Shown one piece after another: positions 25,781-49,559 of a stretch of 64,000 nucleotides of DNA; position 1 is the first letter of the stretch; every line of letters begins with the position of its first letter. The DNA lies in NCBI RefSeq assembly GCF_044647545.1, contig NZ_CP172818.1; one strand, given 5' to 3'. The notes below the pieces were generated by a model. That model did not search any database and had not been told where the DNA came from. It saw only the letters and a list, made by a program, of their open reading frames with translations. The stretch is from Escherichia coli. GTDB taxonomy: Bacteria > Pseudomonadota > Gammaproteobacteria > Enterobacterales > Enterobacteriaceae. The translations under genes were made by a program, and so were the position numbers.

Positions 25781-25786
25781 TGTCTG

Positions 25787-30763: not shown

Positions 30764-32173
30764 ATGTTCAATGGTCGTCCTTTCCCTGTAGATGCATTTC
30801 CTAAAATTATCAGGAATGCAATTTATGAAGTGGAACAGCATACGCAGGCCCCTCAAGGTTTGATTGCTGCTTCTGCTCTTGGGGTAATTTCTCTTGCCTG
30901 TCAGAACCGGATTGATGTTTGCCGATTGAATAATCTACGTGGCCCGGTATCACTTTTCTTAATGACTCTGGCTGAATCAGGTGAACGTAAGAGTACGGTT
31001 GATAAACTGCTGATGAAGCCATTATATCAACTGGAAGAGGATTTATTTGAAAAATACACCCACGATCTTACCGCATGGAGAAATGATGAAGCAATTTTTA
31101 ATATTGAAAAAAAAGCACTGATGTCAAAACTTAAATCAGATATTCGACGTAACAAAGATCACTTGGCAACAAATGAAAGACTTAAAGAACTACTTACGAC
31201 AAACCCGAAAGCTCCAGTGAGATTCAAATTTTTATTTAACGATGCCACACCTGCAGCTATTAAAGCTCATCTCTGTGGGCACTGGCGATCAGTCGGCATC
31301 ATGTCTGATGAAGCTGGGATCATTTTTAATGGTTACACACTTAACGAGCTGCCGTTTATCAATAAGATGTGGGATGGTTCAATATTTACGGTGGAAAGGA
31401 AAAACGAGCCCGAGAAATTAATTAGAGATGCAAGAATAACACTGTCGCTGATGGTCCAGCCTAATGTTTTTAAGGGTTATATCGACAGGAAAGGAGATAT
31501 GGCAAAGGGGATTGGATTTTTTGCACGGTGCCTCATGTGCCAGCCTGCTTCAACACAAGGTAACAGAAAAATTTCCAACCCAATTTTTTCAAATGAACAT
31601 TTGCCGGTATTTCACCAACGTCTTATGGAAATTGTTAATGAGAGCATCATTAAAATTAATGAAAATAATCGCATCTGCCTCCGATTCTCTGCAGAAGCAG
31701 AAAGACATTGGATCGAATTCTACAACCAGGTCGAGTCAGAAATGAGAATGATTGGCCTTCTTTATGATTTTAAGGATTATGCTTCTAAAATGGCGGAGAA
31801 CATGGCGAGGCTTGCTGCCTTACTTCATTACTTCAGCGGTGATGGAGGCGATATATCTGTTACCGCAGTAAAAGCAGCAGTGGAGATAGTGGCTTGGTAT
31901 ATTGAAGAATACATCCGCTTGTTCTCTAAAAAAGAAGAGTTTTCTTTAGATGTTTCAGAAGCAGATGAGCTTTATTGTTGGATAAAAGATTACTGCACGC
32001 AAAAATTTTCTTCCTGCATCAAGAAAAATATTATCTTACAATTTGGGCCAAATAAATTTAGAAATCGTGACAAGGCAAATGAATTAATTAGAATCTTAAT
32101 TTCACAAAACAAAATATTTATATCTTCATGGGGTAAAACAAAAATAATAAACATAACTCATTGTGTTTTTTGA
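30764..32173 (+). CDS. yfjI: YfjI, DUF3987-type protein (primase-associated family in integrative elements), 469 aa
   Basis: ORF track; length and order match the K-12 island; family assignment by recollection. Confidence 0.85.
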   Translation: MFNGRPFPVDAFPKIIRNAIYEVEQHTQAPQGLIAASALGVISLACQNRIDVCRLNNLRGPVSLFLMTLAESGERKSTVDKLLMKPLYQLEEDLFEKYTHDLTAWRNDEAIFNIEKKALMSKLKSDIRRNKDHLATNERLKELLTTNPKAPVRFKFLFNDATPAAIKAHLCGHWRSVGIMSDEAGIIFNGYTLNELPFINKMWDGSIFTVERKNEPEKLIRDARITLSLMVQPNVFKGYIDRKGDMAKGIGFFARCLMCQPASTQGNRKISNPIFSNEHLPVFHQRLMEIVNESIIKINENNRICLRFSAEAERHWIEFYNQVESEMRMIGLLYDFKDYASKMAENMARLAALLHYFSGDGGDISVTAVKAAVEIVAWYIEEYIRLFSKKEEFSLDVSEADELYCWIKDYCTQKFSSCIKKNIILQFGPNKFRNRDKANELIRILISQNKIFISSWGKTKIINITHCVF

Positions 32174-32325
32174 TTTTAATGACAATCTAAAAGGACTTAA
32201 TTTAAGAGTAAAAACAAACTCTAAACCCAGTTCGGATAAAAGCTTGTCATCTTGATAGGTAATATATAGGTACATAGACACATCAGAACGATCACTTACT
32301 CCAATATCATTGGCCAGGATACTAT

Positions 32326-32952
32326 ATGACATACGATAGTGAATTCGGATCACATGTATCCCTATATCGGGATAGAATCAAACAGGTTATTGATGACTCC
32401 CTAAACGAACATCTTAACTCAATGATTCTACGTGTTGATCTGCATGACCCAATTGATACAGAAAATATGGATAACCCATTCTTTCAACCCAGGGTTGACT
32501 CTGGTGCTATATCTCGCTTTACCAGTGCGTTAAAAGCAAAGCTTAAACATGATAAGCATATTAAAACTCAACGGAAAGACTGGCCTGATAGTCGACATTC
32601 CACTTTACGTTACGCATGGGTCAGAGAATATACCAAAAATAGAAAGCGGCATTACCATTTGATACTGTGTTTCAATCAGGATGCTTATTATCATTTAGGT
32701 GATTACGACTTAAACCGTAACACGTTACGTACAATGATAACGACAGCTTGGTACAGTGCACTTGGCATCCCTATAGATAGCTCGGGGAAGTTAGTTAATT
32801 ACCCGCCAAATGGCAAATACCTTCTCAATCGTAAAAGGGACAACTTTGAGCAGACTTATAGCGATTTGATGAATAGGGTGGATTACATGACCAAAGTAAG
32901 GACTAAAATAGTCGGTGACGGAGACCGTAATTTCGGCTGCAGTCGCGGGTAA
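32326..32952 (+). CDS. yfjJ: YfjJ, YagK/YfjJ family (inovirus Gp2-like replication-initiator family), 208 aa
   Basis: ORF track; family assignment by recollection. Confidence 0.8.
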   Translation: MTYDSEFGSHVSLYRDRIKQVIDDSLNEHLNSMILRVDLHDPIDTENMDNPFFQPRVDSGAISRFTSALKAKLKHDKHIKTQRKDWPDSRHSTLRYAWVREYTKNRKRHYHLILCFNQDAYYHLGDYDLNRNTLRTMITTAWYSALGIPIDSSGKLVNYPPNGKYLLNRKRDNFEQTYSDLMNRVDYMTKVRTKIVGDGDRNFGCSRG

Positions 32953-33129
32953 TTTATTTTTTACAACAATGGCCTTTCTTATGGCTGGAAAGGCCTGATT
33001 TGTTTGTATTAAGATATCGGTAATCTTTTGATGGTTGGAAGCCCGTCCTGGTAGACGACCTAGCCTACCGAAGATGTGAGTTATTCAAAAATGTCGCTTT
33101 CCCGCGTTCCGTAGACAAACGTACCTAAA

Positions 33130-35319
33130 TCAATGTCGTCTAATACCGAGCGCGCGCCTGATAAACATCTGATCAACGTACCCAATCGATCTACTCCAAA
33201 TGTCCTGAGTATCCCGAAGATACTGGCTCAACTCATCCACATCAGCCTCGTCGGAAAATTCCAGCAAGTCTACCAGTCGGTGTAACGTCTGAATGGGAAT
33301 GCCAATCTCTTCTAAGGCATTGACACCTGGTGGTAGATGGAAACTTTCGAACGCCAATTTGACATGTGTGTAATCGACTTTGCTGCGTATACCACGCTTT
33401 ACAGCGTGGTGTTTAACTACATCCTCCATCAAGCTGAGCACCTTAGGTAGGGTATAGCCGAAGGTATTGGTTATGAGCTTCAAATCATTGTTGAGGGCAA
33501 TGGAAAGAGTACGTTTCTCCCCTTCAGAAATCCACTGTCGTGCATAATCGATCTGATTTTTCAGATATTCCGAATAACTTTCAGCACTTAAATAGCCGGC
33601 AAGTTTTGCGATCATGACATCCGTAGGCTTAACAGGGACCCCATTGCGACTGAACGTATGGGGAACCAGTCTGGCAATGATCTTTGCAAAGGTCTTGAGG
33701 AAGTTTGTCGCGGGAGTCCAGTGAAACACTAACGAGGAAAATTCGTTATCGTCCATCATCTCGAACATGCTTTGCAGCATTTCGAACTGCTCGACACGGA
33801 AGTACGAATGCTTCTTCACAAGGTCGATGGAAACACGGTCGTTTATGAAAACCTCATCAAAGCGATCCTGTGAAAACTCGGACAAGTGGTCTGGTTGAAC
33901 GCTGGCTAACAGGTTGATTGGGGTATCAATGCCCTGAATACCGAGCGGAATATCCACCTCTTGATTGAGATTGTCTTCCGGGATTTCCTCCAGGCAAAAG
34001 ATTTTGCCGACGAAGTGAACGCCCATGCGCCCGGCGCGACCTTTGATGTTCCCATGGGTGAATTTGTCAATGCTGCGAGTTCCATCGCGGTTGTCGTAGA
34101 TCACAACGTTCTTAGCGATAGTGTTGACTCCTTCAATGATCGTGGAGGTGCAGAGCAAAAAGCGCAGTTTTCCAGCATTGAATTGGTCGGCAGTGTATTG
34201 CTGCAGTGCCCTCGGTAGCGCGCCAAAATGCAAGCCAATACCGTTTCTAAGGGCGACTGTGTAATCCCAGTCGGCATCGAACTCTTCGCTGACCCAGTCG
34301 ACATGGGGATTCTCAGTCGGAGTGCCATGCCCAAGCCTGATCAGCTCGCGCGCCACCAGGCCCGCAACAGTTGGTGACTTGCAATAAATGATCGTTGCGT
34401 CGACACATGCGTGCGCGATTTCCCCCAGCGCTTTGAGCTTGGCTTTGTCGTCATTCGCTTTGATGCCGAACGTCTTAACATCTAGCGCGACTGTATTGAA
34501 GTCGGTAGAAACGAAAGTATGCGGATATCCAAGTTTTTCGAGACCGCGAATGCTGTTAACGAACGGTCCCGTCAGGTAAAACTGCCTGGAGACCTTAAGC
34601 AGTTTGCTTAACGCAATGTTGAGCTCGATGACTCGTTCGTCTTGATGATCAATGTCCCCGCTTTTCAGTTGTCGGAACGCCAACTTGTAAAACTCGTCAA
34701 TGACGAAGAGGTCAATGTCGACGATGTCGTCACGCTCGTTCACTCGCTCCTGAGTTAACACATAAACAGCCTGATCGGAATGGCACACTTGGGAACTGTG
34801 GTGGATGATCTGATATCGGTCACCGAATCGCTCTTGCAGTCGGCGACGGGTTTCGTCGGCAAGAGCCACGGTTGGAACAACCAGAACAAGCCGTTTCAAA
34901 GTTCCCATGCCGAGCAATGAATCGACGATTGCACTTTTGCCCATGCTTGTAGGTGCACTCAGCACCACGTTTTGACCAGACTTGAGCAGATCGAATATGT
35001 GGAACTGCATTGAGTGGAAAACATAACCATCCGAGAATGGCGTCCGGTATAGCTCAAGCACCCTCAGGTCATCCGGTGTCAGGCTGGTGAACTCCTTTTT
35101 GAGATACGGGAACAAACCTGATTTTCTCACCATATTTTTCAAAATTGTGGTGTGCTCGGAAAACCGCTCGCGCGAATCGAGAGCTCGCACGATCAAGTCC
35201 CGTCCCAAGTCATACGAAACAGGGTTAGACAACAGCTTGTTAACCGCAAACAGATAATTGAACGATGAGAAGTCCTCACCCTGCAGGCTATGTTTCGCCT
35301 GTTCATAGATCTCTGTCAT
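33130..35319 (-). CDS. yfjK: SF2 DEAD/DEAH-box helicase YfjK, 729 aa
   Basis: ORF track; Walker A APTSMGKS, motif II VIDEFY, motif VI GRAGRMG visible in the translation; start overlaps yfjL stop (ATGA). Confidence 0.92.
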   Translation of the reverse strand: MTEIYEQAKHSLQGEDFSSFNYLFAVNKLLSNPVSYDLGRDLIVRALDSRERFSEHTTILKNMVRKSGLFPYLKKEFTSLTPDDLRVLELYRTPFSDGYVFHSMQFHIFDLLKSGQNVVLSAPTSMGKSAIVDSLLGMGTLKRLVLVVPTVALADETRRRLQERFGDRYQIIHHSSQVCHSDQAVYVLTQERVNERDDIVDIDLFVIDEFYKLAFRQLKSGDIDHQDERVIELNIALSKLLKVSRQFYLTGPFVNSIRGLEKLGYPHTFVSTDFNTVALDVKTFGIKANDDKAKLKALGEIAHACVDATIIYCKSPTVAGLVARELIRLGHGTPTENPHVDWVSEEFDADWDYTVALRNGIGLHFGALPRALQQYTADQFNAGKLRFLLCTSTIIEGVNTIAKNVVIYDNRDGTRSIDKFTHGNIKGRAGRMGVHFVGKIFCLEEIPEDNLNQEVDIPLGIQGIDTPINLLASVQPDHLSEFSQDRFDEVFINDRVSIDLVKKHSYFRVEQFEMLQSMFEMMDDNEFSSLVFHWTPATNFLKTFAKIIARLVPHTFSRNGVPVKPTDVMIAKLAGYLSAESYSEYLKNQIDYARQWISEGEKRTLSIALNNDLKLITNTFGYTLPKVLSLMEDVVKHHAVKRGIRSKVDYTHVKLAFESFHLPPGVNALEEIGIPIQTLHRLVDLLEFSDEADVDELSQYLRDTQDIWSRSIGYVDQMFIRRALGIRRH

Positions 35320-36932
35320 ACGACCTCTCTCACCTTCTCATCAACTAATTGGGTTAACCGCTCAAGACTCGGGGCTGGATAAATGAATACGTGGATGCAA
35401 AGATTCGCAAACGGCGAATCCTCGATGAGGTCAGCCGCGAATTTTTCGAACAGCACCGCTGTTTCTTTCTCCAGGTCATCCTCGAACCCCGGCGTTTCAG
35501 GCTCGGTTAGTAGATTAGAGTCGTAGCCCACGAACAGAACAAACGTGAAACGATCGAGGTGAGCATCGAAAGGTTGGCTGCCATCAAGAATTTCGTCAAT
35601 GTCGTGGCGAAGCAGGTAGTTATCGTCTTTAATGTCGAGGATTTTTTTGCGCGCGGTATCGATGCAATCCGAAATGTCCTCGTACAACTGATCCCGTATC
35701 TCCGGCAATCTGACGGCAATGTTAATATCAGTCACCAACTCGCTGAAGCCAATCCAAAGCTGATCACCTTCTGGATCGCGGCGAACGATATGCACGTTTT
35801 CAAGAATTTTTTCGGCCCCTGCTTTTTCCACGTATAGCATGCAAGGAATAGGCTGGCTTTCGTGGTGCTGCCGGATCGTTGCGTGCAACAGCACTCGACC
35901 CAAAAATTCGCTGACGTCATGGAGCGATTTGAAGACGGAATTCTTTAGTCGTTCTCGCTTTTCAATGAATGTCAGTTTATGAATATCAGACATTTCTTTT
36001 GGTCGGAGAAAAACCTCATCCAACCATTGACAGACGTTATCCGCGATGTGCTTGTAGCGGTATTTCTTAAGTGAGTACTGCTGATGTAGAACCTGGCCTT
36101 TACGCTTAGCGCAGACCGAAGCCATAGGCGCTCTAAATGGCGTAAGGATGTGGGGTAAGTCCCGTTTGACGTAGATTTTGCGGCCTGACCGAGATTGGTC
36201 ATCTTCGACACGCTGCTTGAACCACTCAAGTAGGTCTGGTCGTAAGTAGGACTTGTCATCAGCACTGTGAATGCGTCGAGAATGCTCGCCCTTGCGCGTC
36301 ACAGTATCAAGGATGCGGCACCAAATGTCTTCGGCGACGGTTTCGGAACTGAGAATGACCCCATGTAGATCTTGGGAGGCCAGCCGTATGTTCTTGATCC
36401 CTAGAAGTTCCAGTTCGCGCAGGGATGAAAACACTTCCCATGTAGCCGCATCGATCCAATCTGAAACGCTTATACCTGAGTCTGTTAAAAAATTGTCTGT
36501 GCGTTTGTTGAGGTCATCGATGAGTTCCTGTCGACCTGGCTTATCTAGTCGGGCGTTTGGGCTGATCGTCAAGTACTCAAGGGTTTTGTTGACCTTTTCC
36601 TCTGTGACGATGGAGTACCTACGTCCAAGGGACAGGTCAGACTCACACTGCATTGATTTGTGCAAAATTGAACTGCAGGGGATCGTCTTTTTATCAGCAC
36701 CTTTTGAATTCTGAACGATGTCCGAAATGTTCCAACGTGTTTTGCCGGTGCTTTTTACCTGAACGAAGTCGATGTATCCATCAGATACAATGTCGATATC
36801 GTCTGTGACCTCGCAGCGCACACTGCGGATAGTCTTGTCACGAAGCATTCGGGTGACATGGTAAGCGGCTACGCAGTCCTGAAATAAGAAACCGTGCTTG
36901 GCGGCTACTCCGCCTGAATCGTTCGACTCCAT
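35316..36932 (-). CDS. yfjL: YfjL, 538 aa, putative nuclease-like N-terminal domain plus large C-terminal domain of unknown function
   Basis: ORF track; N-terminal GFLFQD...EVTDDIDIV...DFVQVKS resembles a PD-(D/E)xK/QxK core; translationally coupled to yfjK. Confidence 0.88.
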   Translation of the reverse strand: MESNDSGGVAAKHGFLFQDCVAAYHVTRMLRDKTIRSVRCEVTDDIDIVSDGYIDFVQVKSTGKTRWNISDIVQNSKGADKKTIPCSSILHKSMQCESDLSLGRRYSIVTEEKVNKTLEYLTISPNARLDKPGRQELIDDLNKRTDNFLTDSGISVSDWIDAATWEVFSSLRELELLGIKNIRLASQDLHGVILSSETVAEDIWCRILDTVTRKGEHSRRIHSADDKSYLRPDLLEWFKQRVEDDQSRSGRKIYVKRDLPHILTPFRAPMASVCAKRKGQVLHQQYSLKKYRYKHIADNVCQWLDEVFLRPKEMSDIHKLTFIEKRERLKNSVFKSLHDVSEFLGRVLLHATIRQHHESQPIPCMLYVEKAGAEKILENVHIVRRDPEGDQLWIGFSELVTDINIAVRLPEIRDQLYEDISDCIDTARKKILDIKDDNYLLRHDIDEILDGSQPFDAHLDRFTFVLFVGYDSNLLTEPETPGFEDDLEKETAVLFEKFAADLIEDSPFANLCIHVFIYPAPSLERLTQLVDEKVREVV

Positions 36933-37190
36933 TTAGACATCCGTGACAATTTTGCGAAAATTAAGGAGATGTTATGACACAGTCCAATCGGATCACTGCA
37001 TCATCACCAGTGATCTAAATACTTCACAGCCATTCTCGGTCGCAGGTATCAAGCTTTTCAGGATTCCACAAATATTGTAACCCTGACGTCTAATTTGGTT
37101 ATATAACATACTGCCCCAACTAACGTAAGGTAGGCACAGCCTTAATCAAGGTTTTGGTTTTCAAATAGTTCAGAGCTGAGACCGCCAACC

Positions 37191-37242
37191 GCACTATGGC
37201 ACTATGGCACTATGGCACTATGGCACTATGGCACTATGGCAC
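37191..37242. repeat. Octanucleotide tandem repeat (GCACTATG) x6.5 flanked by ACCGCCA
   Basis: Read directly: gcactatg repeated six times plus gcac; 7-bp ACCGCCA on both sides; lies between yfjM stop and yfjL start. Confidence 0.95.
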
Positions 37243-37291
37243 CGCCAGCGATTGTAATCACACTTGATATTATAAAACACAGTTGCACGCA

Positions 37292-37555
37292 TTATTTCCT
37301 GGTTGGTAGGGTCATATCTCGATGCTCTTTGAGCAATGTCAACATCGCGTGTTCATGGCTTTCTATATTGTTGATGCCTTGCCCATCCGGACCCCACTCC
37401 TTATAGCTCATCATGATGGCTTGTTTTGGGCTCTCTGCTCGTTCTGTTTCGACGTAGAATTTTTTCTTGTCTGCTGGCGAATAATTACTAAGTATCGAGT
37501 TGCTGCTTGGTGAGATCAGGAAGAGGTTACCGAAACGATGGACATCATCCCCCAT
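37292..37555 (-). CDS. yfjM: Hypothetical protein YfjM, 87 aa
   Basis: ORF track; divergent from rnlA. Confidence 0.7.
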
Positions 37556-37696
37556 TTTGTGGACTGCCCCCCCGGTAGACGATCCTGCCCTATAGTTGGA
37601 GTGCCCCCTATTCAGGTGGCTAAATTTAGCAAATCAATACACTTCAGGGGGGTATTATTGTAGAGTTTCCCCATATGTTTCTATGGGATCCAGGAA

Positions 37697-38770
37697 ATGA
37701 CAATCAGGAGTTACAAAAACTTAAATCTGGTCAGGGCAAATATCGAGACTGAATCCAGACAATTCATTGAAAATAAAAACTATTCAATCCAATCAATTGG
37801 TCCTATGCCAGGGTCAAGGGCTGGGCTTCGGGTCGTATTTACCAGACCAGGGGTTAACTTGGCAACTGTGGACATTTTTTATAACGGGGACGGTTCGACT
37901 ACAATTCAATATCTCACTGGAGCCAATCGTTCTCTGGGCCAAGAGTTAGCGGATCATCTTTTTGAAACCATCAATCCTGCTGAATTTGAGCAGGTAAATA
38001 TGGTACTGCAAGGATTTGTAGAGACAAGCGTTCTACCTGTACTTGAGCTATCAGCAGATGAATCGCATATAGAGTTCAGAGAACACTCTCGTAACGCTCA
38101 TACCGTAGTGTGGAAAATTATTTCCACCAGCTATCAGGACGAATTGACTGTGAGCCTGCATATCACAACAGGTAAGCTCCAGATTCAGGGCCGACCGCTG
38201 TCATGTTACAGAGTTTTCACGTTTAACTTGGCAGCCCTGCTTGATTTACAGGGTTTGGAGAAAGTGCTAATCCGCCAGGAGGATGGTAAAGCTAATATTG
38301 TTCAACAGGAGGTTGCCCGCACTTACTTGCAGACTGTAATGGCCGATGCTTACCCGCATCTCCACGTGACTGCCGAAAAATTGCTCGTTTCAGGGCTATG
38401 TGTTAAACTCGCCGCCCCTGATTTGCCTGACTACTGTATGTTACTTTATCCTGAACTACGCACCATTGAAGGTGTCTTAAAAAGTAAGATGAGTGGGTTA
38501 GGCATGCCAGTACAGCAGCCGGCAGGTTTTGGAACTTACTTTGATAAACCTGCTGCTCATTACATTCTGAAACCGCAATTTGCAGCTACTCTTAGACCGG
38601 AACAGATTAACATCATCAGCACAGCCTATACTTTTTTTAATGTGGAACGTCATTCTCTGTTCCACATGGAAACTGTGGTCGATGCCAGCCGTATGATTTC
38701 TGATATGGCCCGGTTGATGGGTAAAGCCACTAGAGCGTGGGGAATAATCAAGGACTTATATATTGTTTGA
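37697..38770 (+). CDS. rnlA: RnlA toxin (RNase LS endoribonuclease), 357 aa
   Basis: ORF track; translation MTIRSYKNLNLVRANIETESRQFIENKNY... recognised as RnlA. Confidence 0.92.
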   Translation: MTIRSYKNLNLVRANIETESRQFIENKNYSIQSIGPMPGSRAGLRVVFTRPGVNLATVDIFYNGDGSTTIQYLTGANRSLGQELADHLFETINPAEFEQVNMVLQGFVETSVLPVLELSADESHIEFREHSRNAHTVVWKIISTSYQDELTVSLHITTGKLQIQGRPLSCYRVFTFNLAALLDLQGLEKVLIRQEDGKANIVQQEVARTYLQTVMADAYPHLHVTAEKLLVSGLCVKLAAPDLPDYCMLLYPELRTIEGVLKSKMSGLGMPVQQPAGFGTYFDKPAAHYILKPQFAATLRPEQINIISTAYTFFNVERHSLFHMETVVDASRMISDMARLMGKATRAWGIIKDLYIV

Positions 38771-39134
38771 AATCACCGGAATTAACGTCTCAGGGGCTCT
38801 AAAAGCTGTCGTTATGGCGACCGGCTTCGAGAACCCTTTGTCCTCAGTTAATGAAATTGAGACGAAACTTTCTGCCCTACTGGGTAGTGAGACCACTGGT
38901 GAAATCCTTTTTGACCTCTTGTGCGCTAACGGTCCAGAGTGGAACCGCTTCGTTACGCTGGAAATGAAATATGGCCGGATCATGCTGGATACGGCCAAAA
39001 TTATTGATGAGCAGGACGTTCCGACACATATCCTGAGCAAACTGACTTTTACTTTACGTAATCATCCTGAGTACCTAGAAGCCTCTGTTTTGTCTCCCGA
39101 TGATGTACGCCAAGTCCTGTCAATGGATTTTTGA
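38763..39134 (+). CDS. rnlB: RnlB antitoxin, 123 aa
   Basis: ORF track (TTG start overlapping rnlA 3' end by 8 nt); translation (M)FEITGINVSGALKAVVMATGFENPL... Confidence 0.88.
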   Translation: MFEITGINVSGALKAVVMATGFENPLSSVNEIETKLSALLGSETTGEILFDLLCANGPEWNRFVTLEMKYGRIMLDTAKIIDEQDVPTHILSKLTFTLRNHPEYLEASVLSPDDVRQVLSMDF

Positions 39135-39488
39135 AACTCTTCTTTCTAAACGAACCAGTATAGAATTCGCCCTTTTGGCATGATATTAACTTGTCCAATA
39201 TGATCAAATAGCATTAACCCCCCCTCACAACGTCCTGCATAGGGAACACGTTTTCCCCTGTGCACCCACGACTAAATTTCCCCCCCTTTAAACTTCTCAA
39301 TAATGTCACCAATTTTCTGGAAATCCTATGATGCCTTTCCCGGTAAATGGTGCTGTGAGTTCAGAAAGATTCTGCAATCTATGTGCATTGAAAAAATCTT
39401 CAGATAGATATCATTCTCCTGAACAATCCGATGAACGGCAGAACCTCGCGGTTCTGCCGTTTTTGTTTTACTTTTCAGAGGAGTGGTG

Positions 39489-40352
39489 ATGAAAAATTTT
39501 GAAGTTCTGCAGCCACTACAGAACTCCCTTTCCGGTCTACCGCTATGGGTATCTGAACGTATATTGCAGCAGATAAATCAGTTAACCCACTACGAGCCAG
39601 TGATCGGCATCATGGGTAAAACTGGGGCGGGAAAGAGTAGCCTTTGCAATGCCCTGTTTGCCGGTGAAGTATCGCCGGTCAGCGATGTAGCGGCCTGTAC
39701 ACGTGATCCTTTACGCTTTCGCCTGCAGATTGGAGAACACTTTATGACCATCGTGGATCTGCCCGGCGTGGGCGAAAGTGGCGTTCGCGATACCGAGTAT
39801 GCTGCGCTGTACCGCGAACAACTTCCCCGGCTCGACCTGATTCTGTGGCTGATTAAGGCTGATGATCGGGCACTGGCGACTGATGAGCATTTTTACCGTC
39901 AGGTGATTGGCGAAGCATACCGGCATAAGATGCTGTTTGTTATCAGCCAGTCAGACAAAGCTGAACCCACCAGCGGTGGAAATATCCTTTCCACAGAGCA
40001 GAAACAAAATATCAGCCGCAAAATCTGCCTGCTGCATGAGCTATTCCAGCCCGTGCATCCGGTGTGTGCCGTGTCGGTTCGCCTGCAGTGGGGACTAAGG
40101 GTGATGGCAGAGCGGATGATTAAGTGTCTGCCGCGTGAGGCCAGCAGCCCGGTAGTAGCGCTACTGCAACATCCCTTTCGAACAACGGTAGCCCGGGAGC
40201 AGGCACGTGACGATTTCGGTGAAACCGTAGGTGCCATACTCGATACGGTAAGCACCTTTCCCCTTATTCCCGCCCCGGTGCGGACCATTATTCAGGCCGT
40301 GCGTTCCTCGGTGGTGTCAGTGGCCCGCGCTGTCTGGGATTTCTTCTTCTGA
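39489..40352 (+). CDS. yfjP: YfjP, prophage P-loop GTPase (YeeP/YkfA family), 287 aa
   Basis: ORF 39483-40352; ATG at 39489 five nt after GAGGAG; G1 motif GKTGAGKSS, DLPG G3 motif. Confidence 0.88.
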   Translation: MKNFEVLQPLQNSLSGLPLWVSERILQQINQLTHYEPVIGIMGKTGAGKSSLCNALFAGEVSPVSDVAACTRDPLRFRLQIGEHFMTIVDLPGVGESGVRDTEYAALYREQLPRLDLILWLIKADDRALATDEHFYRQVIGEAYRHKMLFVISQSDKAEPTSGGNILSTEQKQNISRKICLLHELFQPVHPVCAVSVRLQWGLRVMAERMIKCLPREASSPVVALLQHPFRTTVAREQARDDFGETVGAILDTVSTFPLIPAPVRTIIQAVRSSVVSVARAVWDFFF

Positions 40353-40380
40353 GTGTTTAATTCTGCCCTATTATTCTCCG

Positions 40381-40412
40381 AGCCCTGTCGCAAGTGCGGC
40401 AGGGCTTTCTTT
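40381..40412 (+). terminator. Rho-independent terminator after yfjP
   Basis: AGCCCTG-TCGCAAGTGCGG-CAGGGCT followed by TTCTTTATTT. Confidence 0.7.
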
Positions 40413-40443
40413 ATTTGTTTTACCCATACTGAGGAGTCTGCTT

Positions 40444-41263
40444 ATGACCCGTCTGGCTTCGCGCTTTGGCGCTGCAAACCAGATACGCCGTGACCGTCCG
40501 CTGACACATGAAGAACTGATACGCCATGTACCCAGTATTTTTGGGGAAGACCGGCACATCCCGCAGTGAACGGTATGCGTACATTCCCACCATTACCGTC
40601 CTGGAAAATCTGCAGCGGGAAGGCTTTCAGCCGTTCTTCGCCTGCCAGACCCGTGTGCGCGACCCGGGCCGCCGGGGATACACAAAACACATGCTGCGTC
40701 TGCGGCGGGCCGGAGAGATAAACGGAGAACATGTCCCTGAAATTATTCTGCTCAACTCTCATGACGGTACCTCCAGCTACCAGATGCTGCCGGGTTACTT
40801 CAGGTTCGTCTGCCAGAACGGGTGCGTCTGTGGCCAGTCTCTGGGGGAAGTGCGTGTTCCACACCGGGGAAATGTAGTGGAGAAAGTTATCGAAGGGGCT
40901 TACGAGGTGGTGGGCGTGTTTGACCGGATAGAGGAGAAGCGTGATGCCATGCAGTCGCTGGTCCTGCCGCCACCGGCACGCCAGGCGCTGGCACAGGCGG
41001 CACTGACTTACCGTTATGGTGACGAACATCAGCCCGTCACCACCGCCGACATTCTGACGCCGCGACGCCGGGAGGATTACGGTAAGGACCTGTGGAGCGC
41101 ATATCAGACCATCCAGGAGAATATGCTGAAAGGCGGGATTTCCGGTCGCAGTGCCAGAGGAAAACGTATCCATACCCGGGCCATTCACAGCATTGATACC
41201 GACATTAAGCTCAATCGCGCATTGTGGGTGATGGCAGAAACACTGCTCACGCAACTGCAGTAG
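40444..41263 (+). pseudogene. yfjQ: yfjQ (DUF932 family), apparently disrupted: 41-codon N-terminal frame ends at 40567, remaining 245 codons are in the +1 frame from 40526
   Basis: ATG 40444 with GAGGAG RBS encodes MTRLASRFGAANQIRRDRPLTHEELIRHVPSIFGEDRHIPQ-stop; the long ORF 40526-41263 is in a different frame; the total span (820 nt) is not a multiple of 3. Confidence 0.6.
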
Positions 41264-41479
41264 ACGTTTCATGTTGCCACGTTGTTAATATCGGACACCA
41301 CCTGTCCGCATCGCTATGTGCTCGTGTGCCTCAATCCCCCGGTTATAGCTTTTAACCCCCGTTACATCTGGCTTTTGCAGAAATAAAAAATAGTTTCTGC
41401 GTTGTCCATACCCTGTCCGCCCCCCTCTTTAAAGTAATCACATCATTTTCAGTCAGTTAACTTTCCTGGAGAATCTCTC

Positions 41480-42181
41480 ATGACACAGGCAGAACGCCGC
41501 CATGACCGGCTGGCTGTCAGGCTGTCACTGATAATCAGCCGTCTGGTTGCGGGTGAAACGTTGAGCGTGCGCAAACTGGCGGCTGAGTTTGGCGTGTCAG
41601 TGCGCACGCTGCGGCGTGATTTTCGTGAACGACTGATGTATCTGGACCTGGAGTATCAGTCCGGATACTGCCGCTTACGCACTGCTGGCAGTGAGATGCA
41701 GATGGTGCCCGACGTGCTTATCTTTGCCCACCGCAGCGGGCTGGCCGGGCTTTTTCCCGGCCTTGACCGCCGTCTGGTGAATGCACTGCTGATGTGCGAT
41801 GAGTCTCCCTGCGTGATAGCACCAGCCAATCCGGTTCCTTCGCCTTCAGGAGCATTGTCTTTCTGGAGACTGATTCAGGCCATTACCGGGCGCAGGCGGG
41901 TGACGCTGATTGCAGAGGGGCGACGCTGTGAGCGCCTAGCTCCCTGCCGGTTACTCATCCACCAGCAGACCTGGTATCTGGTGGCTGAACACGAAGGGCA
42001 TATCGCCGTATTCACACTTGATGAAATCCATCTGATTCAGCCTTTGCAGGAGACTTTTCGCCGCAATGACAGTCTGTGTCGCCTGGTTGAAGACCCGGTC
42101 TTCATTCAGGCCTTACCCCATTTTCGCTTTATCCAGCATTCACTGCTTACGTTTGTTCCGGCCGACAGCCCACCGGAATAG
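41480..42181 (+). CDS. yfjR: YfjR, putative transcriptional regulator with N-terminal HTH (DeoR-like), 233 aa
   Basis: ORF track; translation [48 protein letters not shown]... Confidence 0.85.
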
Positions 42182-42221
42182 CGCAGGCGTTGTTATCAAC
42201 CCGGCAACATGGAGGAGCCCA

Positions 42222-42458
42222 GTGCCCGTTATTGCCATTATCGCCATTGTTATCATCGTCATCATTCTGAACAAAACCGGAGTGTCCGACAGCCTCACGG
42301 CCCTGACACTTGCAACCGTTGCCGCACTACTGACGGGAGGTGGTGCAGCCGGTGCTGCCAGTGTCGCGCTGACGCCGTTCGTCGGCGTGCCGGTGGGTAT
42401 TTTTGTGGGAATTTATGTCTTTGCCAAAGTGGTTCGTCTGATTTCAGGGAAAAAATAA
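42222..42458 (+). CDS. ypjK: YpjK, small hydrophobic membrane protein (about 78 aa)
   Basis: GTG at 42222 six nt after GGAGG; translation VPVIAIIAIVIIVIILNK...; stop overlaps yfjS ATG by 1 nt. Confidence 0.65.
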   Translation: MPVIAIIAIVIIVIILNKTGVSDSLTALTLATVAALLTGGGAAGAASVALTPFVGVPVGIFVGIYVFAKVVRLISGKK

Positions 42459-42901
42459 TGAAACGTAAAACACTACCTCTGCTGGCGCTGGTTGCCACCT
42501 CTCTGTTTCTGAGCGCCTGCGATGACAGGAGTGATGACCTCAAAGCTATCAGTAAATTTAAGGACCTCACGCCCCCGCGCTTCAGCGATGTGGTCAGCCG
42601 TCAGGATGATGTCAGCGAAGAATGGTCACAGGTTGGCTTCTCATCCGGTCTCACCCTGCAGGTCTTACGTACCCGTGAGTCGCCCGATGGTTGCGAGGGT
42701 GGCAGTTACTACTATCTGGTAGATATGGAGGAGAAAACCGTCCAGCCGCTGATGAATGCGCTTTGTATTGCCGACAATATCAAACTGGAATACCACGAAG
42801 TTACGGACCCGTATACGAAAGAAAAATACTTCGAATATTCCCATGACGGCAAACTGATGGGACGGCTGCTGATACCGTCAAACCCTGATAACCGGGAATA
42901 A
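42458..42901 (+). CDS. yfjS: Lipoprotein YfjS, 147 aa
   Basis: In-frame Met within ORF 42209-42901; signal peptide MKRKTLPLLALVATSLFLSAC with lipobox. Confidence 0.8.
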   Translation: MKRKTLPLLALVATSLFLSACDDRSDDLKAISKFKDLTPPRFSDVVSRQDDVSEEWSQVGFSSGLTLQVLRTRESPDGCEGGSYYYLVDMEEKTVQPLMNALCIADNIKLEYHEVTDPYTKEKYFEYSHDGKLMGRLLIPSNPDNRE

Positions 42902-42924
42902 AAACAACGAGAAAGGAGACATAA

Positions 42925-43392
42925 ATGAAAATACGTTCACTAAGCCGGTTTGTACTGGCAAGTACAATGTTCGCCAGCTTTACAGCCTCTGCGGTCCCCG
43001 GACTCTGGCAACAGGGGTACGGTCAGGGCAATGCGGAATACAGTGTGACGGATGCCAGCGGAAAGATGTTTACCATCAACTGCACGGGAAATCCGGACCA
43101 GAACGGTATTTACCAGCACTCGGTTTTTCTGATCCTCGCCGGGGATAAAACGGTCAGCTCGCATGATGACAGTACCGGCATCACAGTGGTGATGGACCAT
43201 AAGCAATATGCCATTCCCTCAACCCTTGGCTGGCGTAACGGAGATAATGCCTGGTTCAGCTTCATCATGGATATCCGTAAGGCCCGGCAGTTCGACGTCT
43301 ACGTCAATGACCAGAAAGTTGGATCGTTTAACCCTGATGTTCGGAATGCACAAAAGGTCCTGCCAACATTAGCGGACTGCACTAACGACTGA
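42925..43392 (+). CDS. yfjT: Secreted protein YfjT, 155 aa
   Basis: ORF track; cleavable signal peptide MKIRSLSRFVLASTMFASFTASA; AGGAGA RBS. Confidence 0.8.
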   Translation: MKIRSLSRFVLASTMFASFTASAVPGLWQQGYGQGNAEYSVTDASGKMFTINCTGNPDQNGIYQHSVFLILAGDKTVSSHDDSTGITVVMDHKQYAIPSTLGWRNGDNAWFSFIMDIRKARQFDVYVNDQKVGSFNPDVRNAQKVLPTLADCTND

Positions 43393-43784
43393 CGGCTGCG
43401 CCTTCCCTACCATAACAACCCTGATTGCCTCCGGCGGTCGGGGGTTTCTTTTTTCTCCTTAATCTCCAGAGGTAGGCCACGTACTTTCGAACGATGAGCG
43501 CAGTGGTCAGTTTTTTTCAGATATATTTATCTTTTTTTGGCTGTAAGCTCCGCTGTGAGCGCAGGCTGTGTGAAAACTCCTGATCACTTCTTGGTCTAAG
43601 CGATGGTTTCATATGATCAACCATTCTTGATAAACCCATGCGACGAACTGACTTTTTCATTAAAATTAGAAATATACGAATGAATACTGCGGATACCGAC
43701 ATGGCCAATCACATTCAAGGACAAGGCAGGCACCAGGTGACATTACTCCCTGATGCACTGGATGATTTTGTCACTGAAGATAAC

Positions 43785-43931
43785 TTAAGTAAGTTTAATC
43801 AGTTCATCACGGGTCGGTGGCATATCGAGATAATTAATTATTGTCGGTTCGTTGCCGTTGTTATGAAGCATCTCCAGCGTGTTGCGTGAGGTGCCACAGG
43901 CCGGGTTGTGATAGATGGTAATGTTGCTCAT
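43785..43931 (-). pseudogene. yfjU: Arsenate reductase ArsC N-terminal fragment (48 codons)
   Basis: Minus-strand translation MSNITIYHNPACGTSRNTLEMLHNNGNEPTIINYLDMPPTRDELIKLT-stop, the ArsC N-terminus with the catalytic Cys, truncated. Confidence 0.8.
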
Positions 43932-43943
43932 ATCAGTATCTAA

Positions 43944-44935
43944 TTACAAAGTGACAGAGAGCCGCCACGCCAGCGCGGCCAGAGTGACAAACAGCACCGG
44001 CACAGTCATGACAATGCCGGTACGGAAGTAATATCCCCAAGTGATTGTCATATTTTTCTGGGCAAGCACATGCAGCCACAGCAGAGTTGCCAGACTGCCA
44101 ATCGGGGTGATTTTCGGGCCTAAATCACAGCCAATCACATTGGCATAAATCATTGCCTCTTTGACGACGCCAGTCGCCGTACTCCCGTCAATCGACAGCG
44201 CACCAATCAGCACCGTCGGCATATTGTTCATCACTGATGAGAGAAATGCCGTCAAGAAGCCGGTGCCGAACGTCGCTGCCCATAACCCCTTGTCTGCCAG
44301 CAGATTCAGCACGCCAGACAGGTACTCCGTGAACCCTGCATTGCGCAGGCCATAGACCACGATGTACATGCCCAGTGAGAAAATAACGATCTGCCATGGC
44401 GCACCGCGCAGGACTTTTCCGGTGTTGATCGAATGACCTCTTTTCGCCACCACAAACAGCACTGCTGCGCCAGCGGCCGCTATCGCACTGACCAGGATTC
44501 CCTGCGGCTCCAGAAAGAAGAAACCGACAAGCAGCAATAACAGGACAATCCAGCCCGCCCTGAAGGTTGCCAGATCCTTGATCGCACTGGCAGGCGTCTT
44601 CAGCAGCGAAACTTAATACGTTGCCGGAATAACTCTGCGAAAGAAGAGATACAGCATAATCAGCGTGGCCGCAATCGCTGCCGCATCCACGGAGATCATA
44701 ACGGAGGCGTACTGCGCAAAGCTCAGACCGAAGAAGTCCGCCGAGACGATATTCACCAGGTTAGAAACAATGAGCGGCAGGCTGGCCGTATCTGCAATAA
44801 ATCCTGCAGCCATGACAAAGGCCAGTGTCGTGCCCTGGCTGAACCCAGTGCGATCAGCATCGCAATCACAATCGGCGTCAGGATCAGCGCGGCGCCGTCA
44901 TTGGCAAACAACGCATCAACAGCGGCACCGAGCAA
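43944..44935 (-). pseudogene. yfjV: Arsenite efflux pump ArsB remnant, frameshifted and 5'-truncated
   Basis: ORF 43944-44537 encodes an ArsB-like C-terminal membrane region; ORFs 44613-44813 and 44753-44935 in other frames carry ArsB-like N-terminal segments. Confidence 0.75.
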
Positions 44936-45094
44936 GACTTTCCAGGTGAACAGCGCTCTAGGTAGGAACTTTGTCGTTGATAGAGTCTTCAGCCATCAAC
45001 ACTGTATCGAGTAATGAAATTGGTTGCTAGAAAGTCGATGATTTGTTGCGTATGATTAAAAATCAACCTTAAAGGCTTTATACATGGATTTGCT

Positions 45095-46798
45095 ATGGCT
45101 TTTGTATCAGAAAGAGAAATTGTAAGAAAGATATTTAGCAAAAAAATTGACTTTACGATCTTGGCATTTTTCTATATTTCCTCTATTTTTTTTCTTCTTT
45201 GTAGTGGCGTTCTCTTTCAATATTTTACCGCTGCCTTCACAAAAGGTAATTGTTATGAATGCTCAATGAAACTTGATTACATAAAACAATTTTATTTTTC
45301 ACTGGAAACCGCATGGTACCTCATATCTGCTGTTGCAGTATTTATTGCATCTGTTTTTATACAGCATAGAATTAAAGCTTATTTAACATTATTAGCTATT
45401 ACATGGATTGTACTAACAATAACAGATGTGGCGTTAATACACGCCTTAGACAATATAGCCATGAATAATATTTTGTTAAATATACTATATAATCTTTTTG
45501 GGGCGATTTTATTGTCACTGTTTATGTGTTTATCAAATTCCCTCCTTTTCCACCTTAATAAGATAAAACATATTCCAATGATTTTATCGGCAATGATTCC
45601 ATTAGTTTCCGCAATAATAATAGCCATACTCATAACCGCTGTTATATATTTATTGTTTGCCCGGCAGGCGGTAGAGATTGAGATGGATATATCTGAAGGT
45701 TCAGACATCGCATATGTAGGTGTAAAAGATAATGAGGAATCATTTGGGTTTTTAAATGATAAAAAAACAGACACACCAACGTATCTGGATGTAATCAAAA
45801 ATGGTAGTTTGATATATAATGATACACAGGGTTTAAGTGGTGCTGATATTTATATTGTCTCCGGTTGTTATGCCCTTCCAGATTTACTTCGCAATGTACC
45901 GCTTGATGCTAAAAAATCTTTTCTGAATGTAAAAAAGCTAGAAATCACACAGAAACTTCCAATGATGGGGTTCATACAAGGTGAATCCGCTGATGTGATG
46001 CCTAAAGCAGCATCCAGGTTAAGTTTGAGCAAGCAAGATGATAAATTTATGCTAGCCTCAAGTGTTACTGACTCTCAAATAAAATTTAAATCAAACAATG
46101 CACAATTGATGGTTGCTTTCGCATTTATGCCAATAACAACGAATGGTATTTTACATGATTATACATACGATATAATAATAAATGATAAAAAATATAAAAT
46201 TGAAAATCATGTTGCACCTCTATCTAGGCTTGATAAAAATAAGAAGATGAAGTGTGAATACCAGCAAATATCGGATTTAACAAATACGTATAACATTAAT
46301 GCAAATTACTTAACGGGTTTTTTACTTGTCCTAAAACCAGATGATATTATTAATTACAACAATAGCCCTTCCGTACTACTCAAGACTGATTTTGCGTTCT
46401 ATAAAAAAACATACCAGAAGCTTGATAAAATATATGATGACATAAGCAATGGAAAATTATCTTCACTGAGAGCAACAGGTATCTCCCAGTTTAGTATCAA
46501 CGGGAAACATTTGTCGTTAAGGCCAGAATCGGAGATTATTATTTCTGAAGGGAGTTTGTATGGACTAGTTAATAAAAGCAAAAAAATCAAAATATATGGC
46601 ACAGCAGATCTTGTTTTTGTTGATAACAAGATAATGAACCTTCGTAAAATAACTTATTTGCAATCTAAGCTAGAAATTTTTGGTTCTTCTATTATGGATA
46701 TATTAAAGTATATATTTGGTTTAGGTCTGCTAGCAATTTCTATAAAATTCATTCATTCTTACTTTAAGAATGATGTGAATGAAAATTTATTCTTGTAA
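45095..46798 (+). CDS. yfjW: YfjW, 567 aa, N-terminal polytopic membrane domain plus large C-terminal domain of unknown function; strongly AT-rich
   Basis: ORF track; about five hydrophobic helices in the first ~190 residues; A/T-rich codon usage unlike the core genome. Confidence 0.85.
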   Translation: MAFVSEREIVRKIFSKKIDFTILAFFYISSIFFLLCSGVLFQYFTAAFTKGNCYECSMKLDYIKQFYFSLETAWYLISAVAVFIASVFIQHRIKAYLTLLAITWIVLTITDVALIHALDNIAMNNILLNILYNLFGAILLSLFMCLSNSLLFHLNKIKHIPMILSAMIPLVSAIIIAILITAVIYLLFARQAVEIEMDISEGSDIAYVGVKDNEESFGFLNDKKTDTPTYLDVIKNGSLIYNDTQGLSGADIYIVSGCYALPDLLRNVPLDAKKSFLNVKKLEITQKLPMMGFIQGESADVMPKAASRLSLSKQDDKFMLASSVTDSQIKFKSNNAQLMVAFAFMPITTNGILHDYTYDIIINDKKYKIENHVAPLSRLDKNKKMKCEYQQISDLTNTYNINANYLTGFLLVLKPDDIINYNNSPSVLLKTDFAFYKKTYQKLDKIYDDISNGKLSSLRATGISQFSINGKHLSLRPESEIIISEGSLYGLVNKSKKIKIYGTADLVFVDNKIMNLRKITYLQSKLEIFGSSIMDILKYIFGLGLLAISIKFIHSYFKNDVNENLFL

Positions 46799-46805
46799 CG
46801 CATTT

Positions 46806-46826
46806 GGCTCCAATTGGAGCCTTTTT
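46806..46826 (+). terminator. Rho-independent terminator after yfjW
   Basis: GGCTCCAATTGGAGCC hairpin followed by TTTTT. Confidence 0.8.
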
Positions 46827-47227
46827 ATGACTATTTATTAAAATATCCTAAGTTAAGCCTGTTTTTAAAGCAGGCTTGAGCGTGAAGCGGACACTCATAC
46901 CTGCTTTAAAGTGGCGTTTTTGTCGTTACCCATACCTATATTTTCTGTTGTTTAACTGCCAGAACTGAGCGGTTGAAAAGCCAGAAATATGCCGAGCCAG
47001 CGGCATGGAAGCGCCAGCAGCTGTTGAATGGAGTACTGTAGGCAAATGGTGCCGTAACCGGCTTTCGTACTGAAAGGTTCTGTCTATCCCATCCCTTCTC
47101 TTGTATCTAACATTTAGTTGTGAATAGCTACTGTAAATGCCCCTACAAAATGAACCATTATTTTTAGAGGGCGTCTGGCACTCCAACTTCCGCTTTTGGC
47201 ACAGAACGGCCTATCAGCAATATAAAA

Positions 47228-47345
47228 GCATTCAGATATATATCATTTCTACAAACATACCCGATTAACGGCAGAATCTCAGGATTCTGCCGCTTTTTTA
47301 TTATTTTTCAGGGGAGTAGTAATGAGCAACTCTGAAGGTTGGTAG
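47228..47345 (+). other. Remnant of a second yfjP-like GTPase gene: conserved 5' leader with hairpin plus a truncated 7-codon ORF
   Basis: 47228-47321 is about 80 percent identical to the yfjP leader 39405-39488, including the CGGCAGAA...TTCTGCCG hairpin and the RBS; ATG 47322 encodes MSNSEGW-stop. Confidence 0.7.
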
Positions 47346-47695
47346 TCATTTTAGCAAACGCTTTCTGGTCTGCCGCAGTGGGCATCGGCTGATTGCGTAG
47401 CAGGGCCACTGGTATCTGCCGGTATCACCGACATTAACATTGAAGACGACCAGGGCATTCACGTCCGCCTGATAGTTCGTGATGCCGAAGGTCGGATGGT
47501 TGGCGGGCATGGAACTTTGAACCGGACGCCGGTGAAGGTTTTAACCGCTATATCCACAGGTCAGGCATCCGCACCGACACCTTCCCCCGCTGACTCCGAA
47601 TCATTTACCAGCAACATTTCACCTTCCCAAACGCGCTTTATTACCTCATACGCCAGCCATCGCCGCTGGCGTTTTTTATTCACGGAGACATACCC

Positions 47696-48154
47696 ATGAC
47701 AACACAGACACAGTACGACCTCGTACCCGCTAACGGATCCGAATTTGAGTTGAGCGTAACGCAGGTACCCGATGAACAGCATATCCGCTTCTGGCCGCAG
47801 CACTTTGGCACCATCCCGCAGTGGATAACGCTGGAACCGCGCATTTTCGCCTGGATGGACCGCTTCTGTGATGAGTACTGCGGGGGTATCTGGTCCTTTT
47901 ACACGCTCAGCAATGGCGGAGCGTTTATGGCTCCTGATGCTGACGGTGACGATAAATGGCATTTGCTCAACGGCATGAATGGCAATGGTGCGGAAATGAG
48001 CGCGGAAGCCGCAGGTATCGCTGTCTGCCTGATTGAATATAGCCATCACGCCTGCCTCACCGAATGCGATGCCATGACGGAGCACTATTACCGCCTGCGG
48101 GATTACGCTCTGCAGCACCCTGAATCCAGCGCCATTATGCGCATTATTGATTAA
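47696..48154 (+). CDS. yfjX: YfjX, antirestriction protein (ArdB/KlcA family), 152 aa
   Basis: ORF track; translation MTTQTQYDLVPANGSEFELSVTQVPDEQHIRFWPQHFGTIPQWITLEPRIFAWMDRFCDEY... Confidence 0.88.
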   Translation: MTTQTQYDLVPANGSEFELSVTQVPDEQHIRFWPQHFGTIPQWITLEPRIFAWMDRFCDEYCGGIWSFYTLSNGGAFMAPDADGDDKWHLLNGMNGNGAEMSAEAAGIAVCLIEYSHHACLTECDAMTEHYYRLRDYALQHPESSAIMRIID

Positions 48155-48162
48155 GGATACTC

Positions 48163-48645
48163 ATGATGGAACAGTCACTCATCCCACAGACACCGGTACT
48201 TCCACTGACCGCACAACGCACGGTAAAACGCGCCTTAACGCTGCTTGACCGACACCTGCGCGAAACAGGCGTGGCATTCACCTCCACTCAGGCTGCTCGT
48301 GACTGGCTGAAGCTGAAAATGGCGGGGCTGGAGCGTGAAGAATTTATGATGCTGTATCTGAACCAGCAGAACCAGTTGATTGCCCACGAAACCCTGTTTG
48401 CCGGTTCTATTAGCAGTACCGAGGTACATCCCCGTGAGGTGGTCAAACGCGCCCTGTATTTCAATGCAGCAGCAGTGATACTGGCGCATAACCACCCCTC
48501 CGGCGACACTACTCCCAGCCAGGCAGATAAGACTATAACGCAGCGTCTGGTGCAGGCGCTTCAGCTCGTTGATATCCGTGTCCCTGACCATCTGATTGTT
48601 GGTGGCAGGCAAATCTATTCGTTCGCAGAACACGGTCTGCTTTGA
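48163..48645 (+). CDS. yfjY: YfjY, RadC-like JAB/MPN domain protein, 160 aa
   Basis: ORF track; JAMM-like motif HNHPSGDTTPSQAD. Confidence 0.88.
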   Translation: MMEQSLIPQTPVLPLTAQRTVKRALTLLDRHLRETGVAFTSTQAARDWLKLKMAGLEREEFMMLYLNQQNQLIAHETLFAGSISSTEVHPREVVKRALYFNAAAVILAHNHPSGDTTPSQADKTITQRLVQALQLVDIRVPDHLIVGGRQIYSFAEHGLL

Positions 48646-48653
48646 GGTATTAC

Positions 48654-48854
48654 ATGAGAATTATCAGTAAACGCCGGGCAATGACGATATACCGCCAGCA
48701 TCCTGAGTCCCGAATCTTTCGCTACTGCACCGGAAAATATCAGTGGCACGGTAGCGTCTGTCATTACACCGGCAGGGATGTTCCGGATATCACAGGAGTC
48801 CTGGCTGTGTACGCCGAACGCCGCAGGACCGCAGCGGACCGTATGCTTGACTGA
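48654..48854 (+). CDS. ypjJ: YpjJ, DUF987 protein (YeeT paralog), 66 aa
   Basis: ORF 48642-48854; ATG at 48654; translation MRIISKRRAMTIYRQHPESRIFRYCTGKYQWHG... Confidence 0.75.
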   Translation: MRIISKRRAMTIYRQHPESRIFRYCTGKYQWHGSVCHYTGRDVPDITGVLAVYAERRRTAADRMLD

Positions 48855-48891
48855 TGAGTATCACCCTGAACTGACAATAAAGAGGTTATGA

Positions 48892-49209
48892 ATGAGCAAC
48901 ACCACATGGGGCCTGCAGCGAGATATCACGCCGCGCCTGGGAGCACGTCTGGTGCAGGAGGGCAACCAGCTGCACTATCTGGCTGACCGGGCCAGTATCA
49001 CCGGTAAGTTTAGTGACGCCGAATGTCCTAAGCTGGATGTGGTATTTCCACATTTTATCAGCCAGATAGAGTCGATGCTGACCACTGGTGAACTGAATCC
49101 CCGCCATGCCCAATGCGTCACCCTGTACCACAACGGTTTTACCTGCGAAGCCGATACTCTTGGTAGTTGCGGCTACGTATACATCGCTGTTTACCCCACT
49201 CAACGCTAA
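48892..49209 (+). CDS. yfjZ: YfjZ, CbeA-family type IV antitoxin, 105 aa
   Basis: ORF track; translation [58 protein letters not shown]... Confidence 0.88.
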
Positions 49210-49229
49210 CTAATTTCACGAGAGCAAGC

Positions 49230-49559
49230 ATGAACACTCTACCTGCTACAATTTCGCAGGCGGCGAAGCCCTGCCTGTCGCCAGTGGCTGTCTGGCAAAT
49301 GCTACTGACACGCCTGCTGGAACAACACTATGGCCTGACACTGAACGACACGCCGTTCAGTGATGAAACTGTTATTAAGGAACATATCGATGCTGGTATC
49401 ACTCTGGCCGATGCAGTCAATTTTCTGGTGGAAAAGTACGAACTGGTACGTATCGATCACAGAGGATTTTCGTGGCAACAACAGTCTCCATATATTTCCG
49501 TAGTAGATATTCTGCGAGCAAGGCGCTCTACCGGCTTGCTAAAAACTAATGTGAAATAA
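49230..49559 (+). CDS. ypjF: YpjF, CbtA-family type IV toxin (cytoskeleton-targeting), 109 aa
   Basis: In-frame ATG 49230 within ORF 49167-49559; translation [57 protein letters not shown]... Confidence 0.85.

Follow-up and report, generated by a model that had tools for sequence, protein, structure and literature searches.

A split yfjQ reading frame in an Escherichia coli chromosome lies in a CP4-57 island that is very probably a product of reference-guided assembly

Here we describe a split DUF932 gene in a 64,000-nucleotide stretch of a chromosome deposited as Escherichia coli (hereafter the window; features are collected in Table 1). The gene is found downstream of rnlA, rnlB and yfjP and upstream of yfjR, which is the position of yfjQ in the cryptic prophage CP4-57 of K-12. 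The K-12 yfjQ gene is 822 bp in length, corresponding to 273 codons, and all of its E. coli homologues are single ORFs of 272-273 codons, whereas in the window yfjQ is divided into frames of 41 and 245 codons. The first frame opens at ATG 40444, with the sequence GAGGAG 7 nt upstream, and is terminated by an in-frame TGA at 40567-40569. The second lies in the + 1 register: it opens behind a TGA at 40517-40519, its first ATG is that at 40526, and it ends with a TAG at 41261-41263. Both frames stay open only from 40520 to 40566, and addition of two bases regains a frame of 273 codons. The 245-residue product of ORF2 matched the Pfam family PF06067 (DUF932) over profile positions 4-227 of 227 with an E value of 1.4e-51, its score of 175.9 bits standing well above the cut-off of 23.

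The split of the yfjQ frame is thereby confirmed as a feature of the sequence. A first-pass annotation of the window had described a short frame of 41 codons behind a good ribosome-binding site and the remaining 245 codons of a DUF932-like protein in the + 1 frame from 40526, and both descriptions were borne out, by direct reading and by the Pfam match. It had also proposed that an indel of about 2 bp within the overlap would restore roughly 273 codons, given there as the length of intact YfjQ; this length agrees with the K-12 gene, and the reference alleles all have two more bases at 40557/40558. The alignment to K-12 and other alleles that it had suggested placed a 2-bp gap exactly where predicted (CCGGCACATCCCGCAGTGA). 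No reference allele combines the identical sequence with an intact protein starting at 40526.

Table 1. Positions of the features at the yfjQ locus and at the boundaries of its island, in coordinates of the window.
Feature	Position	Strand	Remarks
tmRNA gene (ssrA)	27372-27734		
23-bp direct repeat, 3' end of ssrA, left island boundary	27713..27735	+	
CP4-57 cryptic prophage	27736..49740	.	22,005 bp; identical to K-12 MG1655 except for two patches
Shine-Dalgarno GAGGAG of yfjQ	40431..40436	+	Read directly; identical to K-12
ORF1, N-terminal part of the DUF932 gene up to the frameshift	40444..40569	+	41 codons and TGA
Paralogue-derived block overwriting K-12 yfjQ	40471..41241	+	231/231 diagnostic sites of donor type
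ORF2, + 1 frame, entire Pfam DUF932 domain	40526..41263	+	245 codons and TAG
Frameshift site CACATCCCGC, 2 bases short	40555..40564	+	From alignments; K-12 CACGAATCCCGC; ST648-type paralogue CACATCTCCCGC
Codons at the frameshift site			K-12 CAC GAA TCC CGC; donor CAC ATC TCC CGC; window CACATCCCGC
Second patch, 16 SNPs relative to K-12	43565..43789	.	Matches an IS1182-family region
23-bp direct repeat, right island boundary, where ST648-type sequence resumes	49742..49764	+	

Comparison with MG1655 revealed that the interior of the broken gene is not that of K-12 yfjQ. About 230 differences are packed into positions 40479-41222, and the nucleotide identity to the K-12 allele (b2633, WP_000197391.1) is 71.7% overall, far from the near-identity of a K-12 yfjQ allele. 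A simple indel in K-12 yfjQ is therefore ruled out by the roughly 30% divergence of the interior. Among the three readings offered in the first-pass annotation, an indel error in the sequence comes closest, while the picture of a standard K-12-type yfjQ that has suffered slight damage fails, the interior being about 70% identical to the K-12 gene. Only the ends of the gene are of K-12 type (40444-40470 and 41242-41263), so that ORF1 itself begins in K-12-type sequence and is paralogue-type from 40479.

The source of the interior could be traced to another DUF932 gene. Positions 40471-41247 are 99.5% identical to the gene for WP_001234504.1 of strains 144 and CLSC36 (the donor gene), which is found in 144, SMS-3-5, Ecol_881, CLSC36 and many other strains, in a different, CP4-44-like island. 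There its neighbourhood comprises genes for a patatin-like protein, a hypothetical protein, the DUF932 protein and an antirestriction protein, followed by yeeS, yeeT and cbeA, with cbtA also nearby. K-12's own CP4-44 was searched for a DUF932 gene, and none was found. The first diagnostic site is at 40479 and the last at 41222; the block junctions fall within the shared stretches GCTGCAAA and TGTGGGTGATGGCAGAAAC, the left one in an 8-bp match (GCTGCAAA) and the right one in a 19-bp match, which is the length of the longest exact match that the donor gene and K-12 yfjQ share. When the donor gene is aligned to K-12 yfjQ by blastn, the maximal local alignment spans exactly this block, at 70.0% identity. 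Substitutions relative to K-12 are distributed 147/49/29 over codon positions 3/1/2, a bias which argues for a long-diverged, selected paralogue and against sequencing noise.

Within the 744-bp block, the frameshift site is the sole position that is not of donor type. Here the window's CACATCCCGC equals K-12 CACGAATCCCGC without GA or, equivalently, donor CACATCTCCCGC without TC. A 101-nt query spanning the site matched 2,345 E. coli records, and the 2-bp deletion was found in none of them: every full-length match is 103 nt long, two more than in the window. The donor allele type is present at an identity of at least 95% in more than 1,300 of these records, and on the strength of this search of 2,345 records the deletion was rejected as a natural polymorphism of the donor allele. 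At the protein level, the exact 245-residue and 41-residue products each occur on one NCBI contig, of 4,499,902 bp. Both repaired, intact forms of the chimeric protein were absent from about 15 billion proteins in an exact look-up; with these look-ups empty and a best homology hit of 97% identity at 99% query coverage, the existence of an intact chimeric allele in nature was rejected.

The island in which the gene resides is itself out of place in its surroundings. The window joins an ST648-type core to a K-12 CP4-57 island, and apart from two patches, which match ST648-type sequence of other loci, the island is that of K-12 throughout. The 23-bp repeat TCAACTCCCGCCAGCTCCACCAA, which is the 3' end of the tmRNA gene, is present at 27713 and again at 49742, and these ssrA-end repeats at both bounds indicate that the interval between them is exactly CP4-57. 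Over its length the island shows 247 differences from K-12, all in the two patches and none outside them; in the 10 kb around yfjQ, everything is identical to MG1655 except the yfjQ interior and 16 SNPs at 43572-43789. The second patch is of the same nature as the first: over the 220 bp at 43565-43784 it matches, with 100% identity, part of an IS1182-family transposase region that ST648-type genomes, including that of a strain named ST648, have at another locus, and 43565-43789 is a second paralogue overlay.

Outside the island the picture is entirely different. The core at 1-27,700 and 49,745-64,000 differs by about 2% from K-12, while 8800-27735 and 49741-64000 are 99.98% identical to CLSC36, so a K-12 identity for the window is ruled out. 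The segment 19000-27300 is 100.0% identical to Ecol_881, MS6198, ECONIH1, CLSC36, WP5-S18-ESBL-08 and others. In CLSC36, ssrA abuts ypjA and the island is absent. The CP4-57 interior was present in 361 of 5,426 complete genomes, and all 24 of those sampled evenly down the ranking were K-12-lineage strains or laboratory derivatives with 100% identity; the next best match had 44% coverage and 78% identity. A conjugational hybrid between K-12 and a wild strain was also considered and rejected: the sequence type switches no more than 45 bp from one end of the island and no more than 4 bp from the other, and the patches would be left unexplained.

Several smaller features of the window were noted in the course of these comparisons. 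The right att repeat at 49742-49764 reproduces the 3' end of ssrA without a mismatch, while K-12 differs from it at 49745-49748 and by a 1-bp indel; this perfect repeat implies that ST648-type sequence starts as soon as bases can be aligned, just as in the yfjQ block. Between bamD and raiA, CLSC36 carries an IS4 insertion (8372-9799 of its locus) that the window, at 8800-8813, does not have, and this insertion may be specific to CLSC36 or may be one that the assembly method could not represent. At 59476 and 60392 the window has a C, as in K-12, and CLSC36 has 1-base gaps; the genes concerned, an alpha-amylase family gene and a DUF5507 gene, are annotated as frameshifted in CLSC36, and the gaps are probably lesions or errors of that genome. 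Finally, clustered differences from both K-12 and CLSC36 are seen in the rRNA operon and its spacer (1130-1440 and 2028-2043), with a 10-base gap near 1435, and these may represent a blended consensus of the multicopy rRNA operons.

Related assemblies provided a context for this arrangement. BS-01 (NZ_CP172816, 4,493,816 bp), BS-04 (NZ_CP172819, 4,519,539 bp) and HS-01 (NZ_CP172817, 4,512,954 bp) are RefSeq "complete genomes" from a single Indonesian farm project, and CP4-57 with K-12-identical proteins is found in all three. In BS-01 and BS-04, the two assemblies whose flanks were compared with K-12, the core beside the island differs from the K-12 sequence and the island shows 0 differences outside yfjQ (in both) and yfjX-ypjJ (in BS-01). 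The paralogue patches are not the same in BS-01 and BS-04. The changes in BS-01 give rise to proteins found in that assembly alone (WP_400168315 to WP_400168317), and in BS-04 yfjQ (3065-3886 of its locus) is annotated with an internal stop, which is a hybrid TAG codon with its first base from donor TAC and its third from K-12 GAG.

Also, a second mis-sized indel is present in the window at 18212, in the ffh-rpsP spacer, where two bases of the CLSC36 sequence are missing beside a 114-bp K-12-specific segment. The window reads AAGGTT--TTAGCG in place of the natural AAGGTCATTTAGCG, and among 3,858 genomes the same form was found only in BS-01, with HS-01 one base off and the 3,855 others at full length. 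An otherwise unseen mis-sized indel shared by different lineages, at a site where reference and sample differ, points to a shared method rather than to shared ancestry. The chromosome from which the window comes is 4.50 Mb, which is K-12-sized, against 5.0-5.3 Mb for the genomes that match the window core. From this size, the shared idiosyncrasies and the closest similarity, we infer that the source of the window belongs to the same series as BS-01, BS-04 and HS-01, and these three appear to be K-12-guided assemblies. A literature search for a paper describing the BS and HS assemblies returned nothing relevant.

Taken together, these findings make it very probable that the locus is a chimera, generated when a wild ST648-type isolate was assembled or polished on the K-12 MG1655 reference, a pipeline whose nature we deduce from its products. 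Several features expected of such a chimera are found: a segment of about 21 kb without a single difference from the reference, set in flanks diverged by about 2%; nearest natural relatives that do not have the segment, as in CLSC36, where ssrA adjoins ypjA and the flanks are 99.98% identical; and deviations from the reference that match other loci of the sample lineage, at 99.5% for the DUF932 gene and 100% for the IS1182-family region, in the same strains. In the proposed sequence of events, the sample would have contributed nothing for CP4-57, and the K-12 bases would have been left unchanged. At two stretches the sample would have possessed paralogues, namely the DUF932 gene of the CP4-44-like island and the IS1182-family element, and these would have replaced the reference bases over the full length of each stretch that could be aligned. 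Most likely the 2-bp frameshift arose as a by-product of this overlay. The change from GAA to ATC can be written as "delete GA, insert TC" three bases on, and the window has the deletion half alone, as would result if a consensus step had applied one of two adjacent indel calls and so left a 2-bp gap. Most likely, then, there is no real frameshifted yfjQ gene, and probably there is no yfjQ locus at all in the sequenced organism.

The exact route to such a chimera was not of the simplest kind. At indels of 105-114 bp the window agrees with the sample, and these, with the overlay of a paralogue at 70% identity, imply something other than plain short-read SNP substitution; ordinary short-read mappers would not lay a 70%-identical paralogue over yfjQ, which counts against the proposed route. 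A simple best-hit overlay also fits poorly. The donor gene is slightly closer to K-12 yafZ (72.0%) than to yfjQ (70.0%), and the donor-side antirestriction/yeeS segment, 72% identical to yfjX-yfjY, was not overlaid in the window, although it was in BS-01.

A more restricted question concerns the deletion itself. It also corresponds to the loss of one TC from the donor ATCTCC, and could be a genuine private mutation, which is a point against its origin as a by-product. The locus would then still be chimeric, and the strain's own DUF932 gene in its CP4-44-like island would have lost TC before being copied onto yfjQ. In support of this, CACATCCCGC is exactly donor CACATCTCCCGC less TC, lost inside a short TCTC repeat, and over its remaining 744 bp the block reproduces the donor faultlessly, so that the consensus there is otherwise accurate. 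Set against it are the absence of the deletion from all of the more than 1,300 donor-type records (at least 95% identity), the coincidence of the site with a 3-base difference between K-12 and donor that can be written as paired 2-bp indels, and the occurrence in the same assembly series of other hybrid errors between reference and sample, including another 2-bp loss. A private deletion combined with the chimera is thus an unlikely account of the locus as a whole, though one of some weight; given the chimera, a real deletion has roughly one chance in four.

Far less probable is a wholly natural origin, in which an ST648-type strain gained a K-12-type CP4-57 at ssrA, yfjQ and a remnant were converted by resident DUF932 and IS1182-family copies, and a 2-bp deletion then produced a recent pseudogene. 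The perfect 23-bp direct repeats at the bounds are those that site-specific integration leaves, paralogous genes of cryptic prophages are in principle recombinable, and the codon-position pattern of 147/49/29 at positions 3, 1 and 2 marks the core as a real, selected allele. Such a history is difficult to reconcile, however, with the absence of any difference from a laboratory strain over about 21 kb inside a chromosome diverged by about 2%, with an island otherwise seen only in apparent K-12 derivatives, and with the empty site in the closest relatives. Conversion at 70% identity would moreover require junctions in matches of 8 bp and 19 bp. RecA-dependent recombination needs identity over roughly 25 bp or more, and the junctions, at 8 bp on the left and 19 bp on the right, fall short of this. 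At both patches the tract takes in all that can be aligned, the chromosome measures 4.50 Mb, and the same island recurs in three other isolates of one project, all of which speak against natural acquisition. Were it true, the natural reading would document a case in which paralogues of cryptic prophages recombined despite being highly diverged. The least credible proposal, with almost nothing to commend it, is that the split gene is functional, either through programmed + 1 ribosomal frameshifting or through a shorter DUF932 protein initiated at Met 40526, the latter having been raised in the first-pass annotation. A complete Pfam DUF932 domain is indeed retained in ORF2 (4-227 of 227), but the homologues are all single ORFs of 272-273 codons, the frameshift is conserved in 0 of the 2,345 matching records, where a programmed event would be expected to recur, and there is no recognizable slippery site ahead of the TGA. 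The ATG at 40526 is the out-of-frame CAT-GTA of every intact allele, with no Shine-Dalgarno sequence upstream, and the shorter product is further disfavoured by the deletion being a singleton.

Several known systems resemble the locus in part. Like reference-guided assemblies, in which reference bases without coverage are kept, the window preserves a reference-specific island to the last base amid diverged sequence, takes up sample sequence only where the sample offers something to align, and has hybrid reference/sample codons and mis-sized indels at complex variant sites; unlike the products of reference-guided SNP substitution, it takes sample indels of 105-114 bp and a paralogue overlay of only 70% identity. 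The gene shares with K-12 yfjQ its place between yfjP and yfjR, and the two are identical in the region upstream, in the Shine-Dalgarno sequence, in the first 9 codons and in the last 7; it departs from the K-12 gene, at 71.7% nucleotide identity, in having a different allele inside and a broken frame. Conversely, its core is 99.5% identical to the WP_001234504.1 gene of the CP4-44-like island (ST648-type strains, 144, SMS-3-5), with which it agrees at 231 of 231 diagnostic sites, while the neighbourhood and the 5' and 3' ends are not those of that gene, which is an intact ORF of 273 codons. A broken frame in a defective prophage also recalls cryptic-prophage pseudogenes such as the arsenic transporter remnant of CP4-57 and the DUF905 fragment. 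The lesions of those CP4-57 pseudogenes are common to K-12 genomes, however, whereas the yfjQ lesion is a singleton at a junction site of reference and sample.

The findings from this analysis add no new biology of yfjQ or of the DUF932 family, and their value is that of a warning about records. The window appears to come from a chromosome that was deposited as a complete genome but built on a K-12 reference. Records of the BS-01, BS-04 and HS-01 type contain phantom K-12 islands, chimeric genes that exist in no organism (WP_400168315-317) and artificial pseudogenes. Pseudogene counts, prophage content, inventories of defence systems (rnlAB, abpAB) and inferences of recombination drawn from such records would be wrong.
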